Below, piece by piece: positions 46,495-56,092 of a stretch of DNA of 64,000 bases (positions are counted from its first letter, which is position 1; each line of letters starts with the position of its first letter). The notes under the pieces were generated by a model, which made no database searches, was not told the origin of the DNA, and was given only the letters and a program-made list of their open reading frames with translations. Source of the DNA: Aquificaceae bacterium (GTDB lineage Bacteria > Aquificota > Aquificia > Aquificales > Aquificaceae). A program made the translations under genes and the position numbers. Location of the stretch: assembly GCA_041640635.1 (NCBI GenBank), contig JBEPZX010000008.1:1-64000 (forward strand). Reading direction: 5' to 3'.

Positions 46495-47496
46495 ATGGCA
46501 GTTGTGTATTACGACAGCGATGCAAGCCTAGATATACTCAAAGATAAAACAATAGCAATTCTTGGCTATGGAAGTCAAGGACATGCACATGCTCTTAATC
46601 TAAAAGACAGTGGTATAAGGGTAATAATAGGCCTTCCAGAAAATAGTAAATCACGACAAAAGGCGATTAACGATGGTTTTGAAGTTTTTACTCCCAGTGA
46701 AGCTTCCAAAGAAGCCGATATAATAATGTTCTTGACTCCTGACACTGTGCAGTCTCAAATCTATAAGGAATGCGTAGAGCCTCATTTAAATGCTTCAAAA
46801 ACCTTAGCATTTGCACATGGTTTTAACATACATTTTAGACAAATTGTGCCACCAAAGGAAGTAGATGTCTTTATGGTAGCCCCAAAAGGACCAGGACACT
46901 TGGTGAGATGGATGTACGAAGAGGGTAAGGGTGTACCTGCTCTAGTTGCCATATACCAAAATGCTTCTGGACATTGCAAGGATAAAGCACTAGCCTATGC
47001 AAAAGGTATAGGATGTACAAGAGCTGGTGTCATAGAAACGACCTTTAAAGAAGAGACGGAAACGGACCTGTTTGGTGAACAGATGGTTCTTTGCGGTGGT
47101 GCAACAGCTTTAATCAAAGCTGGCTTTGAAACTCTTATAGAAGCTGGTTATCAACCTGAGGTGGCATACTTTGAATGTTTGCATGAACTTAAACTCATAG
47201 TAGACTTGATATACCAGTATGGCATAGCGGGTATGAGATACTCTATTTCTGACACCGCTAAATATGGCGATGTTACACGTGGTGAAAGAATATACAAGTT
47301 TGTAAAACCACTAATGAAGGATGCTTTAGAAGAGATACAAAAAGGTGAGTTTGCACGAGAATGGATACTAGAGAATCAAGCGGGAAGACCTGTGTTTAAT
47401 GCTCTTTTGGAGAGAGATAAACACCATTTGATAGAAGAAGTTGGAGAAACTCTCAGAAAAATGATGCCATGGATAAGTGACAAGGAGCTTAAATGA
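46495..47496 (+). CDS. ilvC: ketol-acid reductoisomerase
   Basis: [32 protein letters not shown]. Confidence 0.98.
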
Positions 47497-48116
47497 ACCT
47501 AACTAAGAAAAGAGAGAATTTGAAAAAAATATACACACCTGTAGGTGTATTGCTTTATAAGCTACATATGCCTCCAAATCTTATTACTTTATTGTCCTTA
47601 ACCACTGGAATGCTTGCGGCTTACTTTTTTTACCATGGTAAACTTCTCACAGCTGTTGCTTTTCTCGTTATGTCTGGATTGTTTGATCTTGCAGATGGTA
47701 TAGTAGCTAGACTATCAGACAAAGCTTCCAAGTTTGGGGCGGTGTTCGATTGGATAGCGGACAAGTGGGTTGATGGTTTTGTTCTTGGAACTGTAGCTTA
47801 CGTATACGCTGGTCCTTTGACCACTATAACCGTAATAACAGCTTCTATGCTTCATTCTTTCATAAAGCCCGTTGTATACGCAGAAATAGGATACGAAAGT
47901 AGAGAGAAAGGAAAGATAAAAGACCCACTGGAGGGTGTAGGTTTCTTTGGAAGACCCGAGACACATCTGACACTCATAGTGTTTTCCGTTATGGAAAGGT
48001 TCGAACTTCCCATCGGTTTAAGCATATGTATCAAACTTATAGCTCTTCTGACTATGGTATCTTTGATTTTGCGCGTACTGTATTTATACAAAAACTACAG
48101 GAGGGATTATGACTAA
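47493..48116 (+). CDS. CDP-alcohol phosphatidyltransferase
   Basis: [24 protein letters not shown]. Confidence 0.92.
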
Positions 48117-48774
48117 AAGACCTTACGTGATTATAGTATCTGAGGTTACTGTAGATGGAAAATTAACCCTTTATAGAGGAGCATCTAGCAAAGAAATTAT
48201 GACATTGATGGACCATGAAGCTTATGTATACCTTCATGAGATAAGAGCCAAAGTAGATGGCATCATGGTTGGTTGTGAAACAGTAAGGACGGACAATCCT
48301 AGCTTAACGGTAAGGTATGCAAAAGGTAAAAACCCAACGCGCATTATCCCTTGCTCTACTCTCAACGTTCCTACAGATGCAAACATATTCTCAAAAGATG
48401 CTCCAACCGTTATAGTTACCACAAAAAGAGCGAGTCATGAAAAAATAGAGAAGATAAAGTCTTTGGGAGCGGAAGTTTTGATTGTGGGTGAAGAACTTGT
48501 TGATTTTGATGCTTTAATGTCCGTATTATTTGACATGGGGATAAAAAGCCTAATGGTTGAGGGTGGTTCCTCTATAAATTGGGAGTTTGCCAAGAGAGGT
48601 TTTGTGGATGAAATAAGACTCATTCATTTGCCTGTTATAGTAGGTGGAGAAAATGTTCCTACCTTAGTAGGTGGAGAGGGATTTAAGAGTCTTAAAAATT
48701 TACTCAACCTCAGGCTACGATCCCACTTCAAAAGAGGACATCACTTGATAACAGAGTGGGAAGTAGTTAAATAA
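48109..48774 (+). CDS. stand-alone RibD C-terminal-type pyrimidine reductase
   Basis: TVDGK, DNPSLTVR, MVEGGS, VDEI. Confidence 0.88.
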   Translation: MTKRPYVIIVSEVTVDGKLTLYRGASSKEIMTLMDHEAYVYLHEIRAKVDGIMVGCETVRTDNPSLTVRYAKGKNPTRIIPCSTLNVPTDANIFSKDAPTVIVTTKRASHEKIEKIKSLGAEVLIVGEELVDFDALMSVLFDMGIKSLMVEGGSSINWEFAKRGFVDEIRLIHLPVIVGGENVPTLVGGEGFKSLKNLLNLRLRSHFKRGHHLITEWEVVK

Positions 48775-48778
48775 AGTA

Positions 48779-48795
48779 GGGAGCGCTAAGCTCCC
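48779..48795. terminator. hairpin between convergent genes
   Basis: GGGAGC-gctaa-GCTCCC. Confidence 0.6.
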
Positions 48796-48804
48796 CATTT
48801 CAGA

Positions 48805-50025
48805 TTATTTCTTACTCTTTACATAGTTCTCCCAGTTTTCTGGTGTGAAGGGTGAGATCTCTCTCAGCAGCTTTATTGTCTTTGGAAACTCCTGCACGAT
48901 GTATTCTACATCTTCATCAGTATTGTCTCTACCAAAGCTAAACACCAGTGAACCGTTTGCTACTTCCTTCGGAACACCAACTGCAAACAATACATGGGAC
49001 TGCTTTAGTGCCAAAGAAACACACGCAGAACCCGAAGCTGTCTCTATCCCGATTAAGTCTAACCTAAGCAGCATAGCTTCCCCTTCTATAAGGTGCACTA
49101 TGAGAGATAGGTGATGAGGTAAGCGTTGAGTTGGGTGTCCTGTAAACTCTATATAATCTAATTGTTCTTGGATCGCTTTTTTAAGTCTATCTCTATAGCC
49201 AGATAGTCTTGCCATCCTGTCCTGGAGTTCTTTCTGTGTTAATTCGCATGCTGCACCAAATCCAACGATTCCTGGTACATTTTCCGTCCCAGCTCTTACT
49301 CCTCTTTCTTGAACACCACCTTCTATTAAGGGTCTTACCTTCACACCTTTACGTGTCCAAAGAGCACCTACTCCCTTTGGACCATACATAAGATGAGCGG
49401 TGAAAGAAGCAGCATCTACTCCCCACTCTTTTACATCCACAGGGTAATGTCCCAAAGTAGGGCATGCATCCGTATGGAATATTACTTTTGGATTTTTTGC
49501 TTTGGCAGCTTGCACCAGATCCTTTATGTTTTGAATAGTTCCTATTTCTCTATTGGAGTGTCCTATGCTTACCAAAACAGTATCAGGGCGTATAGCTTCT
49601 GCTAATTGATCTGGGTGTATTAGTCCATACTTGTCAGGCTTTAGGTATGTGACTTCCCAACCTTTCTTTTCCAAGTTTTTTAAAGGATGAAGTATGGAGT
49701 GATGCTCTATTTCTGTGGTTACTATGTGCTTGCCTTTTTTCTCGTAAGCTTCAGATATGCCTTTTATAGCCAAATTGTTGGACTCTATACCACCAGAGGT
49801 GAATATTATTTCTTCTGGCGTATTTGCATTTATTAGATTGGATAGTTTCTCTCTTGCCTCGTTGATTGCTTTTTTGGCTATCTGTCCAAAGCTGTGCAGA
49901 GATGTGGGATTACCAAAGTGCTCTCTAAAGTATGGAAGCATGGCTTCCAGCACTTCCTGTGCTACAGGTGTCGTAGCTATATGGTCTAGGTAAACGACCT
50001 TTGCCCCTGCCTTTTTGATAAACAT
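48805..50025 (-). CDS. IscS/NifS-like protein lacking the PLP lysine (probable pseudo-desulfurase)
   Basis: IscS fold motifs (ATTP, FGNP.S.H, FTSG, EH, RAGTEN, GSAC) but AHLMYGPKG in place of AHKxYGPKG. Confidence 0.9.
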   Translation of the reverse strand: MFIKKAGAKVVYLDHIATTPVAQEVLEAMLPYFREHFGNPTSLHSFGQIAKKAINEAREKLSNLINANTPEEIIFTSGGIESNNLAIKGISEAYEKKGKHIVTTEIEHHSILHPLKNLEKKGWEVTYLKPDKYGLIHPDQLAEAIRPDTVLVSIGHSNREIGTIQNIKDLVQAAKAKNPKVIFHTDACPTLGHYPVDVKEWGVDAASFTAHLMYGPKGVGALWTRKGVKVRPLIEGGVQERGVRAGTENVPGIVGFGAACELTQKELQDRMARLSGYRDRLKKAIQEQLDYIEFTGHPTQRLPHHLSLIVHLIEGEAMLLRLDLIGIETASGSACVSLALKQSHVLFAVGVPKEVANGSLVFSFGRDNTDEDVEYIVQEFPKTIKLLREISPFTPENWENYVKSKK

Positions 50026-50028
50026 GTT

Positions 50029-51063
50029 TTACCTCCTTAAAATTTCATTTGTTACCAACTTTGCTATGCTTAAAAATGCCTTTGAGACTTCTGAATCTGG
50101 ATGGGACTCTACAACTGGTATCCCTTTATCTGAGGTCTCCGCAACCTCTGGGTCTATGGGTATAGCTCCCAAAACTTTAGTTCCGTATGTATTCGCAAAC
50201 TCAACGGTTTTGCCTTTACCAAATATGTAATACTTCTTGTTAGTCTCTGGACACACAAAGTAGGACATATTTTCTATAACACCTACTATAGGTATTTGAA
50301 CCTCTTTAAACATAGAAGCAGCTTTCTTCACATCCGCCAAAGCTACATCCTGTGGAGTGGTAACTATTATGGCTCCTTCAATCTCTACATTTTGTGCCAA
50401 TGTAAGTTGCACGTCACCTGTGCCTGGAGGTAAATCTAAAACTAAAAAGTCTAAATCTCCCCATCTTACATCAAACAGGAACTGCGTAAGAGCTTTCATT
50501 AGCATAGGTCCACGCCAAATAATTGGAGTGTCTTCAGATGGTAGCAAAAAGCCAATAGAAAGTGTTTTTATGTTGTACCTTTCTAAGGGGATTATCTTGT
50601 TGCTTTCATCTACGCTAACTCGCTCTCCTTTTATACCCAAAATGGTAGGAATACTAGGACCGTATATATCTGCATCTAGCAAACCTACCTTGTAACCTAG
50701 TTTAGAAAGAGCCAAAGCCAAATTGGCAGAAACCGTAGATTTGCCTACTCCGCCTTTCCCACTTCCTACAATTAGTATGTTTTTTATACCATCCACCTTT
50801 CTCCTAGAAAAGATTGTCTGTCCAGAAGTTTGCTGAGGTACGCTCTCTTCTACAAATCTTATTTTAAGATTCTGCACATCTGAGAGAGACTGCACTACCT
50901 GTCTCGTTACATCTTCTATGACCTTTTCTAAATCCCTTTTAGGTAGCCGATAAACTACTTCCAACAAGCCTCCTATAAGTTTTATATCCTTTACTAGATC
51001 AGACAACTTCCATTGATCTATAGTTTTATTTTTAAAAGCATCCATTATTTCTTTAACTGCCAT
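50029..51063 (-). CDS. mrp: Mrp/NBP35/ApbC Fe-S carrier ATPase
   Basis: GKGGVGKST, DADIYGPS, WRGPM, DLPPGTGD, ENMS..CPET. Confidence 0.93.
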   Translation of the reverse strand: MAVKEIMDAFKNKTIDQWKLSDLVKDIKLIGGLLEVVYRLPKRDLEKVIEDVTRQVVQSLSDVQNLKIRFVEESVPQQTSGQTIFSRRKVDGIKNILIVGSGKGGVGKSTVSANLALALSKLGYKVGLLDADIYGPSIPTILGIKGERVSVDESNKIIPLERYNIKTLSIGFLLPSEDTPIIWRGPMLMKALTQFLFDVRWGDLDFLVLDLPPGTGDVQLTLAQNVEIEGAIIVTTPQDVALADVKKAASMFKEVQIPIVGVIENMSYFVCPETNKKYYIFGKGKTVEFANTYGTKVLGAIPIDPEVAETSDKGIPVVESHPDSEVSKAFLSIAKLVTNEILRR

Positions 51064-51104: not shown

Positions 51105-51941
51105 ATGAATTATATGCCACAAATCATTAATTATATTAGTAGCAAAAAAGATACAGTGGAGATATACATTGTTCCTAACGCTTCTCCTATGGAGAGGAGT
51201 GGAAATCTTCTCATAAAAATAATAGATAGTGTCCTAACCTCAGAAGATGTAAGGGATACACTTGTAGCTCTAAAAAGTCACACTCCTCATGCTCTAGGAC
51301 CATTAGGTAAAGAAGGCTCATTCTCCTTTGGACTCCATGGCATCGGAAGATTTAGAATAACTTACATGATTCAGAGAGGAAGCTATGTAATTCATATAGT
51401 AAAAACACCTCATGAAGTTCCCTTACTGCAAAATCTATGTGAAGATAGCTCAATAATAAAAAAACTTGAAGAAGTAGTCCTACACGGTTCGGGTTTATTA
51501 CCTATCATAGGGAAAAATTCAATAAAAGCTACAGTATTTATATACTCATTACTTAAGCATATATGTTCCAATTATACAAAGGTGGTATTCATACTAGAAG
51601 ATCCTTTAAGCTTTCTTCTTAGACACGATAAATCTCTTGTAATACAAAGAGAAGTGGGTTCGGATGTAGAAAGTTTTGAAGAAGGTTTGCGGGATGCAAT
51701 ACTCTTAAATCCTGACATAATCTACATAGGATTTAGAGGGTTCCTACCTAGTAACGAGTTAATAAGCATTGTAAGACTCATAGAACTCGATACCACAGTA
51801 GTTATACACTTCCCTTATATGGAAACGAGTAGGTTCTTGCGAGAGTTCAATATGAATAAAGAATACATAAAATCCTTTGTTATAGTTAAGGATGGTACCA
51901 CATCAAAAGATAAATTGAATATAGAAATCACAGAACCATAA
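51105..51941 (+). CDS. degenerate PilT/PilU-like ATPase
   Basis: GRFRI, LEDP, IQREVGSDVESF..L..NPDII; Walker A/B eroded. Confidence 0.75.
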   Translation: MNYMPQIINYISSKKDTVEIYIVPNASPMERSGNLLIKIIDSVLTSEDVRDTLVALKSHTPHALGPLGKEGSFSFGLHGIGRFRITYMIQRGSYVIHIVKTPHEVPLLQNLCEDSSIIKKLEEVVLHGSGLLPIIGKNSIKATVFIYSLLKHICSNYTKVVFILEDPLSFLLRHDKSLVIQREVGSDVESFEEGLRDAILLNPDIIYIGFRGFLPSNELISIVRLIELDTTVVIHFPYMETSRFLREFNMNKEYIKSFVIVKDGTTSKDKLNIEITEP

Positions 51942-54891: not shown

Positions 54892-56092
54892 GGAAGCATC
54901 CCAGATTCAGTGATGGAAAATAAATAAAGCTCACCACATAACATTGTCTACTAAACATACACAGAAAGTAAGCCTTATAAAGCAATTAAAAGTATCCTTC
55001 ACTATTGGTATACCACTAAAACAAACTGACATCCACTGGTTAGAAGAGAAGTTATTGAAGAAAAGGGAATAGGTATCTTTGGAGATATTTTGGAGATATT
55101 GAAAAAAAAGTTATGGAAGCTGTTGAGAAAGAAGCAGTTAAATCTAAAGGTTTATTCAAGGAGTTCTGGTAAAGATTAGTGAGGAATGGTAGTGAAACAA
55201 AGAAGATAAAGACATTACTTGGGACTTTACCAATAAAGAGGACAAGGCTTGGTTGCTGTAGGTGTAGGAAGGATATTTATCCTTTAGATGAGACCATTGG
55301 GCAGTTATGAGAAATTCAGTTTAAAGAAGTTCACAAGGTTAGAGGTTTTACACAATAAGATACACACAATAGCATTGGAAGAAGGAAAAAGGATAGAGTC
55401 ATGGGAGGAAGAAAGGCGCTCTAAGATAAAAGAGGCAGAGGGTTTAGGAGGGTCTTTGAGAAAGAGTCCTGAAGTTTTTCATATTCACGTAGATGGCACA
55501 GGGGTAAATAAAGGTAGGGACGAGTTTCAGTGAGAGGGTTTTGATTTCAAAAAAGAGGGTATGGATAATGGATAACAAAAGTTACGTCCCTGTTGAAGAT
55601 GCGGAGTCTTTCAGGGAGAAGTTTTATGTGGATTGTGTAAGGTGGATTTGCAACTTGAGGGGGAGCTATTTCCCTGAGACTACAGGAGTACTGGACATGT
55701 GGCATTTAAAGAGGGAGTTTAAGAAGGTATTTGGAGTTGGGGGTAGTAATTTAGTTGCTTATCTTAAGGATCTTGCATTAAAAGGTGGGGCAAAGAGGAT
55801 AGTAGAGATGTTAAGAGAGGAGGCATTGAGGCAAAGGGGAGAGATAAAAACAAAGGTTAAGGATCATATAGAGCATGTGAGTAACAACTACCAGTGGATA
55901 GAGAACACACCGCTGATATTACAGTTGCCGAGATGTTTAAGAAGAAAGGCATGAGCTAGTATAAGAGTGATGCAAATCCTTTAGTGAGGGCTTTTGAAAC
56001 TCAATGGCGAATGGGATATCTACTGGAAACAGCGGTGAAAGGAGTTACTCAGGTATGCAGACTGAATTTTATCACGGAAAAAAGATGCTTAC
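54892..56092 (+). mobile_element. decayed ISLre2/ISKra4-like DDE insertion sequence
   Basis: 9-bp direct repeat CCCAAAATG (54883-54891, 56093-56101); imperfect TIRs GGAAGCATC/GTAAGCATC; fragmented transposase (IKTLLG..CCRC..YPLDE, DGTG, LDMWH, NGEWD.YW). Confidence 0.8.

Follow-up and report, generated by a model that had tools for sequence, protein, structure and literature searches.

We analysed an IscS-like protein (IscS*) of a hot-spring-type Aquificaceae bacterium that lacks the PLP Schiff-base lysine of cysteine desulfurases. It is probably a non-catalytic partner of IscU, whose cluster would be ligated by the loop cysteine of IscS*, Cys335; this residue probably also carries inorganic sulfur, likely donated by TusA, and the Mrp protein encoded beside iscS* would act downstream. 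The new point is that most of a family, also devoid of SUF and SMS, has a lysine-less IscS as its only desulfurase homologue; the unexplained co-occurrence of IscS* with a one-cysteine Mrp is also of note. If this reading is true, most of the Aquificaceae builds its Fe-S clusters from inorganic sulfur.

The iscS-like gene and its mrp neighbour

Both genes lie on the minus strand of the window, i.e. the whole stretch of 64,000 nucleotides that was analysed, and show the following features:

48777..48797, minus strand: terminator-like hairpin directly 3' of iscS*, suggestive only (3 in the region versus 1.7 +/- 1.4 in shuffles)
48805..50025, minus strand: iscS-like gene (IscS*), 406 aa, without the PLP Schiff-base lysine (NF002806, 328.5 bits, cut-off 304)
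48817..48879, minus strand: C-terminal segment 383-403, equivalent to the IscU-binding helix of E. coli, absent in the lysine-bearing paralogues of relatives
48943..48945, minus strand: Val361, at E. coli Arg354 (alignment)
49021..49023, minus strand: Cys335 (GSAC), the loop cysteine, equivalent to E. coli Cys328 (alignment)
49066..49086, minus strand: helix E314-L320, equivalent to the IscU-contacting alpha8 of E. coli (7/7 positions invariant in 25 orthologues)
49390..49392, minus strand: CTT codon of Leu212 (AHLMYGPKG), at E. coli Lys206 (ORF and alignment)
49459..49461, minus strand: Pro189, corresponding to E. coli Gln183; clade members have Pro or Ala (alignment)
49549..49551, minus strand: Arg159, corresponding to E. 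coli Asn155; the same in all clade members (alignment)
50029..51063, minus strand: mrp/apbC-like P-loop NTPase, 344 aa, with intact deviant Walker A and one Cys (PF10609, 352 bits)
50032..50037, minus strand: AGGAGG, ribosome-binding site for iscS*, within the final two codons of mrp and 6 nt ahead of the iscS start codon ATG
50251..50253, minus strand: Cys271 (CPET), at the first cysteine of the customary CxxC, whose second cysteine is missing (alignment)

The residues, the open reading frame and the one-cysteine mrp 3 nt upstream, as described by the first-pass annotation, were all present in the ORFs and in the alignment with E. coli IscS. In this alignment with the K-12 protein, K206, N155, Q183 and R354 are replaced by L212, R159, P189 and V361, and further changes affect S10 (I16), T76 (I80), S241 (A245) and H350 (N357), while H15, H108 (preceded by E107, also kept), D186, T209, H211, T247 and C335 are retained. 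As regards the hallmarks of type I cysteine desulfurases in E. coli numbering, IscS* has the fold-type I sequence and fold, H104, D180, the phosphate-side residues (T76 being I80) and the loop cysteine, and it lacks the Schiff-base lysine and the pocket residues N155, Q183 and R354. Genes of this type are therefore mis-annotated as cysteine desulfurases.

The substitutions are not peculiar to this assembly. Among the 120 best homologues of 7997 matches, position 212 was occupied by Leu in 98, Tyr in 21, Phe in one and Lys in none; R159 was found in all 120, V361 in 118 and C335 in 119, the remaining two and one sequences, respectively, being truncated at these positions. Conservation of the lysine and arginine replacements among orthologues, on which the case for a repurposed protein had been made to depend, was thus borne out, with Tyr or Phe as occasional alternatives to Leu212. 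In the loop around Cys335, 15 of 16 positions were invariant in 25 orthologues.

The mrp stop lies 3 nt upstream of iscS*, and Cys271 is the single Cys in the whole Mrp protein. The family profile PF10609 matched with an E-value of 1.7e-105 and the deviant Walker A (S101-T110) was invariant in 28 sequences, as expected of Mrp/NBP35/ApbC proteins, whereas the CxxC cluster motif, which E. coli Mrp bears at the position matching CPET, is lacking and the ApbC score (322.5) fell below the cut-off of 348. Judged by these features, the neighbour is an ATPase of the Mrp family whose cluster site is atypical. Judging from the gene spacing, mrp and iscS* would be co-transcribed, and the ribosome-binding site inside the end of mrp suggests translational coupling of both genes.

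Three other features were observed near the pair. A short degenerate PilT-like ATPase gene (window 51105-51941, plus strand; 89.9 bits, cut-off 319) is divergent from mrp, and an archaeal-type inositol-phosphate CDP-alcohol transferase-like gene together with a stand-alone archaeal-type riboflavin reductase gene (window 47493-48774, plus strand) is convergent on iscS*. Two short ORFs (window 55288-55954, plus strand) resemble what we take to be transposase pieces.

Fe-S machinery and gene neighbourhoods

In this genome, IscS* was the sole tblastn match to itself, and a PF00266 search gave four places, namely IscS*, one aminotransferase and two weak partial matches. No other NifS/IscS/SufS-like gene was found by tblastn and PF00266, and no SufB/D by profile search, in an assembly that is 98% complete and comprises 52 contigs; the genome search for a canonical IscS or SufS proposed earlier was therefore negative. 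Since absence from such an assembly is by itself no proof, closed relatives were consulted. By the PF00266 search, nine of 11 closed Aquificaceae genomes (G034, G035, G038, G046, G047, G050, G072, G074 and G083) had no lysine-bearing NifS/IscS/SufS, while a lysine-bearing copy was present in the other two (G001 and G010); three of the nine also carry an extra lysine-less copy that is more degenerate. A further lysine-less NifS-like gene, much more degenerate but with a loop Cys retained, was seen at L085:1321-2514, L273, L275 and L278 (genomes G034, G031, G072 and G046), between homocitrate-synthase-like and aldehyde:ferredoxin oxidoreductase genes. The lysine-bearing IscS paralogue of G001 and G010 (L083:5-2610 and L084) adjoins fdhE and a GcvH-like gene, which suggests a formate-dehydrogenase accessory role. 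Paralogues of the lysine-bearing type occurred in 10 of 89 Aquificaceae and 36 of 50 Hydrogenothermaceae genomes, the lysine itself having been read in four.

The genome encodes one IscU, with its three Cys and one His ligands (G000:C1:22075-22443), in a separate unit on contig C1 that consists of iscU, a thiI/mnmA-like gene and tusA. The ThiI/MnmA-like gene (L005:404-1417), which lies between iscU and tusA across Aquificales, encodes several Cys and an NFACT-R_2 domain; its product matched PF02568 and PF18297 and scored under every NCBIfam cut-off. At L319-L320 (G000:C4:80327-91237), tusA, dsrE2 and dsrE are followed by heterodisulfide-reductase-like (identified from sequence) and GcvH-like genes, a set that presumably resembles a sulfur-oxidation cluster. 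With four TusA-like genes in the genome and this tusA-dsrE2-dsrE cluster, persulfide carriers would be available.

We surveyed 178 genomes of the phylum, which are kin and not independent, including those of families f1-f5. From the names on homologue matches we infer that f1 is Aquificaceae (Hydrogenobacter, Aquifex) and f2 Hydrogenothermaceae (Persephonella, Sulfurihydrogenibium). The IscS query matched in 87 of 89 Aquificaceae genomes (one only weakly) and 49 of 50 Hydrogenothermaceae genomes (at least one only by a paralogue), and gave at most four weak matches among the 38 genomes of f3-f5. IscU was distributed alike (79/89, 47/50 and 0/38, respectively). Conversely, SufB/D-core matches, and hence SufB/SmsB, were absent from every Aquificaceae and Hydrogenothermaceae genome searched (0/89 and 0/50, i.e. 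0/139), but were found in 35 of 38 f3-f5 genomes, mostly in the form of lone genes for proteins of about 310 aa, read here as putative SmsB. This mirror-image distribution suggests that IscS*/IscU and an SMS-like scaffold replace each other. SMS is itself reported to use sulfide (PMC13066941, section 2.4).

Wide loci were collected from 20 Aquificaceae and 20 Hydrogenothermaceae genomes with long contigs, chosen across genera. The mrp linkage, whose conservation the first-pass annotation had proposed to test, is upheld: mrp was directly upstream of iscS* in 40/40 loci. The genes iscU, thiI-like and tusA were found within 5 kb downstream of iscS* in 17/20 Hydrogenothermaceae loci, in the order mrp-iscS-iscU-thiI-like-tusA, and in 0/20 Aquificaceae loci. 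Around 30 Aquificaceae iscU genes, the thiI-like gene was present in 29 and tusA in 24, several of these loci being cut by contig ends. The mrp-iscS* pair resembles the leading half of an older mrp-iscS*-iscU-thiI-like-tusA operon, which was split in Aquificaceae. In some Hydrogenothermaceae (L061 and L069) an opposite-strand CLC chloride-channel gene breaks the iscS*-iscU junction.

A single motif Cys was found in Mrp at 39 of the 40 loci, in contrast to CxxC in 18/18 Mrp proteins of f3-f5, the families without IscS*, orthologous f3 proteins included. A Hydrogenothermaceae Mrp (L072:6249-7328) has no Cys at all, and its gene is nevertheless directly upstream of iscS*. In one genome of 76% completeness (G071) no iscS* match was found within 750 bases after mrp.

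Outside the phylum, 17 of the 150 closest representatives of 50% clusters have no such lysine; among 10 proteins looked up, members of the lysine-less clusters include Nitrospirae, Chloroflexi and an Odinarchaeum. An alignment of 13 proteins of this kind, of which 12 are lysine-less, served to fetch 80 outside loci. Of the 22 lysine-less loci, 12 had iscU, 13 tusA and none mrp beside the gene; tusA without iscU occurred at six, and four, some on short contigs, had none of the three. The corresponding numbers at the 58 lysine-bearing loci were 8, 0 and 1, and four tested neighbours of the outside loci were of the DsrE family. From the order that includes G180, a Caldimicrobium record, 30 loci were fetched with 1.5-kb flanks, one of which repeats L171; 19 of the 30 were lysine-less, with iscU beside 18, tusA beside 17 and mrp beside none. 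G180 itself combines a lysine-less IscS and iscU with a CxxC Mrp elsewhere and a lysine-bearing copy. In G179, one of five outside genomes, a lysine-less IscS is the only IscS match, and a Mrp without motif Cys directly precedes a second iscU (L255, G179:C21:99158-102823).

IscU as the probable partner and alternative readings

According to PMC2854127, IscU contacts E. coli IscS through helix 309-316, E347 and helix 379-391. IscS* retains E314, E316 and E354 as well as the C-terminal LR-x-x-SP-x-W segment, in which it is identical to E. coli at 7-8 of 16 positions, compared with 0-2 of 16 in the lysine-bearing Aquificales paralogues, 4/4 of which stop before the C-terminal IscU-binding helix. 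Identity in alpha8 (3/8 for IscS* versus 0-5/8 for the paralogues) is not discriminating alone. We regard IscU as the probable partner because the contact helices are kept, because iscU is linked in Hydrogenothermaceae and because lysine-less IscS genes outside the phylum lie by iscU or tusA. Against this reading, iscS* is linked in this genome to mrp, with iscU elsewhere, and in Aquificaceae the adjacency to mrp has outlasted that to iscU.

In the proposed mechanism, the conversion of cysteine to alanine would be beyond IscS*. The protein would dock on IscU, and Cys335 would then swing over to the site in IscU, where it would ligate the cluster transiently and probably also act as carrier of persulfide. 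Sulfur would come from an inorganic pool, most likely via the TusA encoded with iscU, and Mrp would ferry clusters from IscU to client proteins, the one-cysteine Mrp being the likely carrier. The donor step is apparently the weakest part of this proposal: W45, E49 and D52, which contact TusA in E. coli, are Q48, K52 and N55 in IscS*, and R27 of TusA is Ala. As residues differ on both sides, the step would need a re-wired interface. A sulfur source other than cysteine, also put forward by the first-pass annotation, is a likely consequence of the mechanism. Extended further, the reading would have most Aquificaceae building all their Fe-S clusters and thio-cofactors without cysteine desulfurase or SUF/SMS, the IscS-TusA relay running backwards from inorganic sulfur to TusA, Cys335, IscU and the one-cysteine Mrp, whose open ligand site might be filled momentarily by Cys335; we consider this extension possible, though doubtful.

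The initial proposal was that IscS* binds the one-cysteine Mrp directly, with Mrp as the scaffold and Cys335 as its missing ligand or sulfur carrier. It would account for the immediate adjacency of both genes in both families and for the loss of CxxC where IscS* is present; since PMC6345978 describes CxxC as indispensable to the bridging cluster, a one-cysteine Mrp dimer may lack ligands. However, Cys loss in Mrp and gain of IscS* map to one ancestor, so that the correlation amounts to a single event (n = 1), and adjacency is kept next to the Cys-free Mrp of L072 and lacking in the incomplete G071 assembly. Mrp motifs without Cys also occur in other lineages, Melioribacter and Rokubacteria among those named (27 of the last 31 Mrp matches, a number biased by the Cys-less-variant query). 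Moreover, G180 has a lysine-less IscS and iscU and, elsewhere, a CxxC Mrp, and mrp was never a neighbour of the lysine-less genes outside the phylum. Together with the intact IscU of this genome, the kept IscU-binding helices and the iscU clustering in Hydrogenothermaceae, these observations speak against Mrp as the main acceptor for Cys335, and we judge a direct Mrp scaffold improbable, though the gene set of G179 leaves it some room. Improbable as well, in our estimation, is that IscS* serves mainly to distribute persulfide, through TusA and ThiI/MnmA-like proteins, to tRNA thiolation and to the sulfur of cofactors, while IscU builds clusters from sulfide without its help. The thiI/mnmA-like gene and tusA do travel with the cluster, and tusA without iscU was found at some of the outside loci; nevertheless, the best conserved surface of IscS* is that of the IscU-contact helices, and IscS* and IscU are distributed alike in the phylum.

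A remodelled pocket, in which IscS* loads Cys335 itself with non-covalently held PLP or PMP, or with an anionic donor such as thiosulfate or polysulfide at Arg159, appears rather unlikely. Arg159 is invariant, the pocket that has lost its Arg at 361 has regained one at 159, and the retention of H108, D186, T209, H211 and T247, in addition to H15, makes non-covalent PLP/PMP and some chemistry possible; PMP is held by A. fulgidus IscS according to PMC8918507. On the other hand, Arg at 159 does not characterise the class, since other lysine-less lineages mostly keep Asn there or have Ser, Gly or Pro. K217 of the GPKG motif probably does not take over as Schiff-base lysine, given that active enzymes have it beside K206 and that several lysine-less relatives have lost it (GPQG, GPNG, GPLG, GPPG). 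As for a decaying gene or an assembly artefact, only the loss of catalytic residues speaks for it. The gene is intact in all full-length relatives, an orthologue has been expressed and crystallised (9WFY), and iscS* differs from that of the nearest species by a dN of 0.009 and a dS of 0.34 (dN/dS about 0.03), pN being 0.07-0.12 with saturated dS against four more distant species. Conservation in homologues and loci, in two families, and the dN/dS ratio refute decay, which has hardly any probability left, and uphold the earlier view that the gene was repurposed.

Comparison with known systems

IscS* belongs to the class of inactive IscS proteins, a known type, and an orthologue has already been crystallised. 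PDB 9WFY, deposited as 'cysteine desulfurase' and which we take to be the Aquifex aeolicus protein, is 82% identical to IscS*, has 406 aa and the same R159, P189, L212 and V361, and matches the protein of locus L036 letter for letter. The variants 9WFE, 9WFB, 9WF8, 9WEW, 9WER and 9WEP revert 2, 3, 4, 5, 6 and 9 residues stepwise, starting with R159 and L212, then V361, P189, I80, I16 and lastly G155, A188 and T209; the four positions highlighted by the first-pass annotation are all among them. These stepwise pocket reversions suggest that the depositors treated the wild type as devoid of the chemistry. No study matching the series was found in the literature, and the comparison draws on the sequences and the molecule name. 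That a structural group is already in possession of the orthologue and the reversion series lessens the value of our finding.

The next-best solved relative by sequence, about 43-45% identical, is IscS of Archaeoglobus fulgidus (IscS2-IscU; PDB 4EB5, 4EB7, 4HVK; D199K, 4R5F), in which, like in IscS*, the lysine is replaced and the loop Cys is kept; IscU is present in both cases and the contact surface is kept in IscS*. The archaeal protein has Asp at the lysine position instead of the Leu or Tyr of the IscS* clade. PMC8918507 and PMC7585200 describe it as inactive and as ligating the IscU cluster through a Cys, sulfide being the proposed source; unlike for IscS*, no mrp link is described in the passages considered. 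It raises the question of the sulfur source for clusters in cells whose IscS is inactive. In a quick tree of 64 rows, built with 37 of the 133 lysine-bearing representatives and without the A. fulgidus sequence, archaeal-type rows stood apart from Aquificales and the lysine-less label changed six times, three of them forced by strong branches. Given this separation and at least three forced changes, the lysine may have been lost in Aquificales separately from the archaeal-type loss, and the tree suggests several separate losses of the lysine.

The MIS system (MisS-MisU), as portrayed in section 2.4 of PMC13066941, also combines an IscS-like protein with a one-domain IscU-like scaffold in the absence of SUF. 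MisS is defined there as a cysteine desulfurase and MIS as carrier-less, whereas IscS* lacks, as judged by sequence, the residues of a catalytically competent MisS and is linked to mrp and tusA. With Mrp/ApbC/NBP35 carriers the neighbour shares PF10609 and the deviant Walker A, but the second Cys of CxxC is missing.

Methanosarcina acetivorans IscS1 (MA0808), without the catalytic lysine and PLP-binding residues, has been proposed to act like the A. fulgidus protein, together with IscU1 (PMC7585200). This precedent is blurred by the two intact IscS copies and the SMS of the same organism, neither of which most Aquificaceae searched possess. Among the 11 closed Aquificaceae genomes examined, nine have no recognisable machinery other than the lysine-less protein and IscU, and culturable members of the family would therefore offer a clean test.
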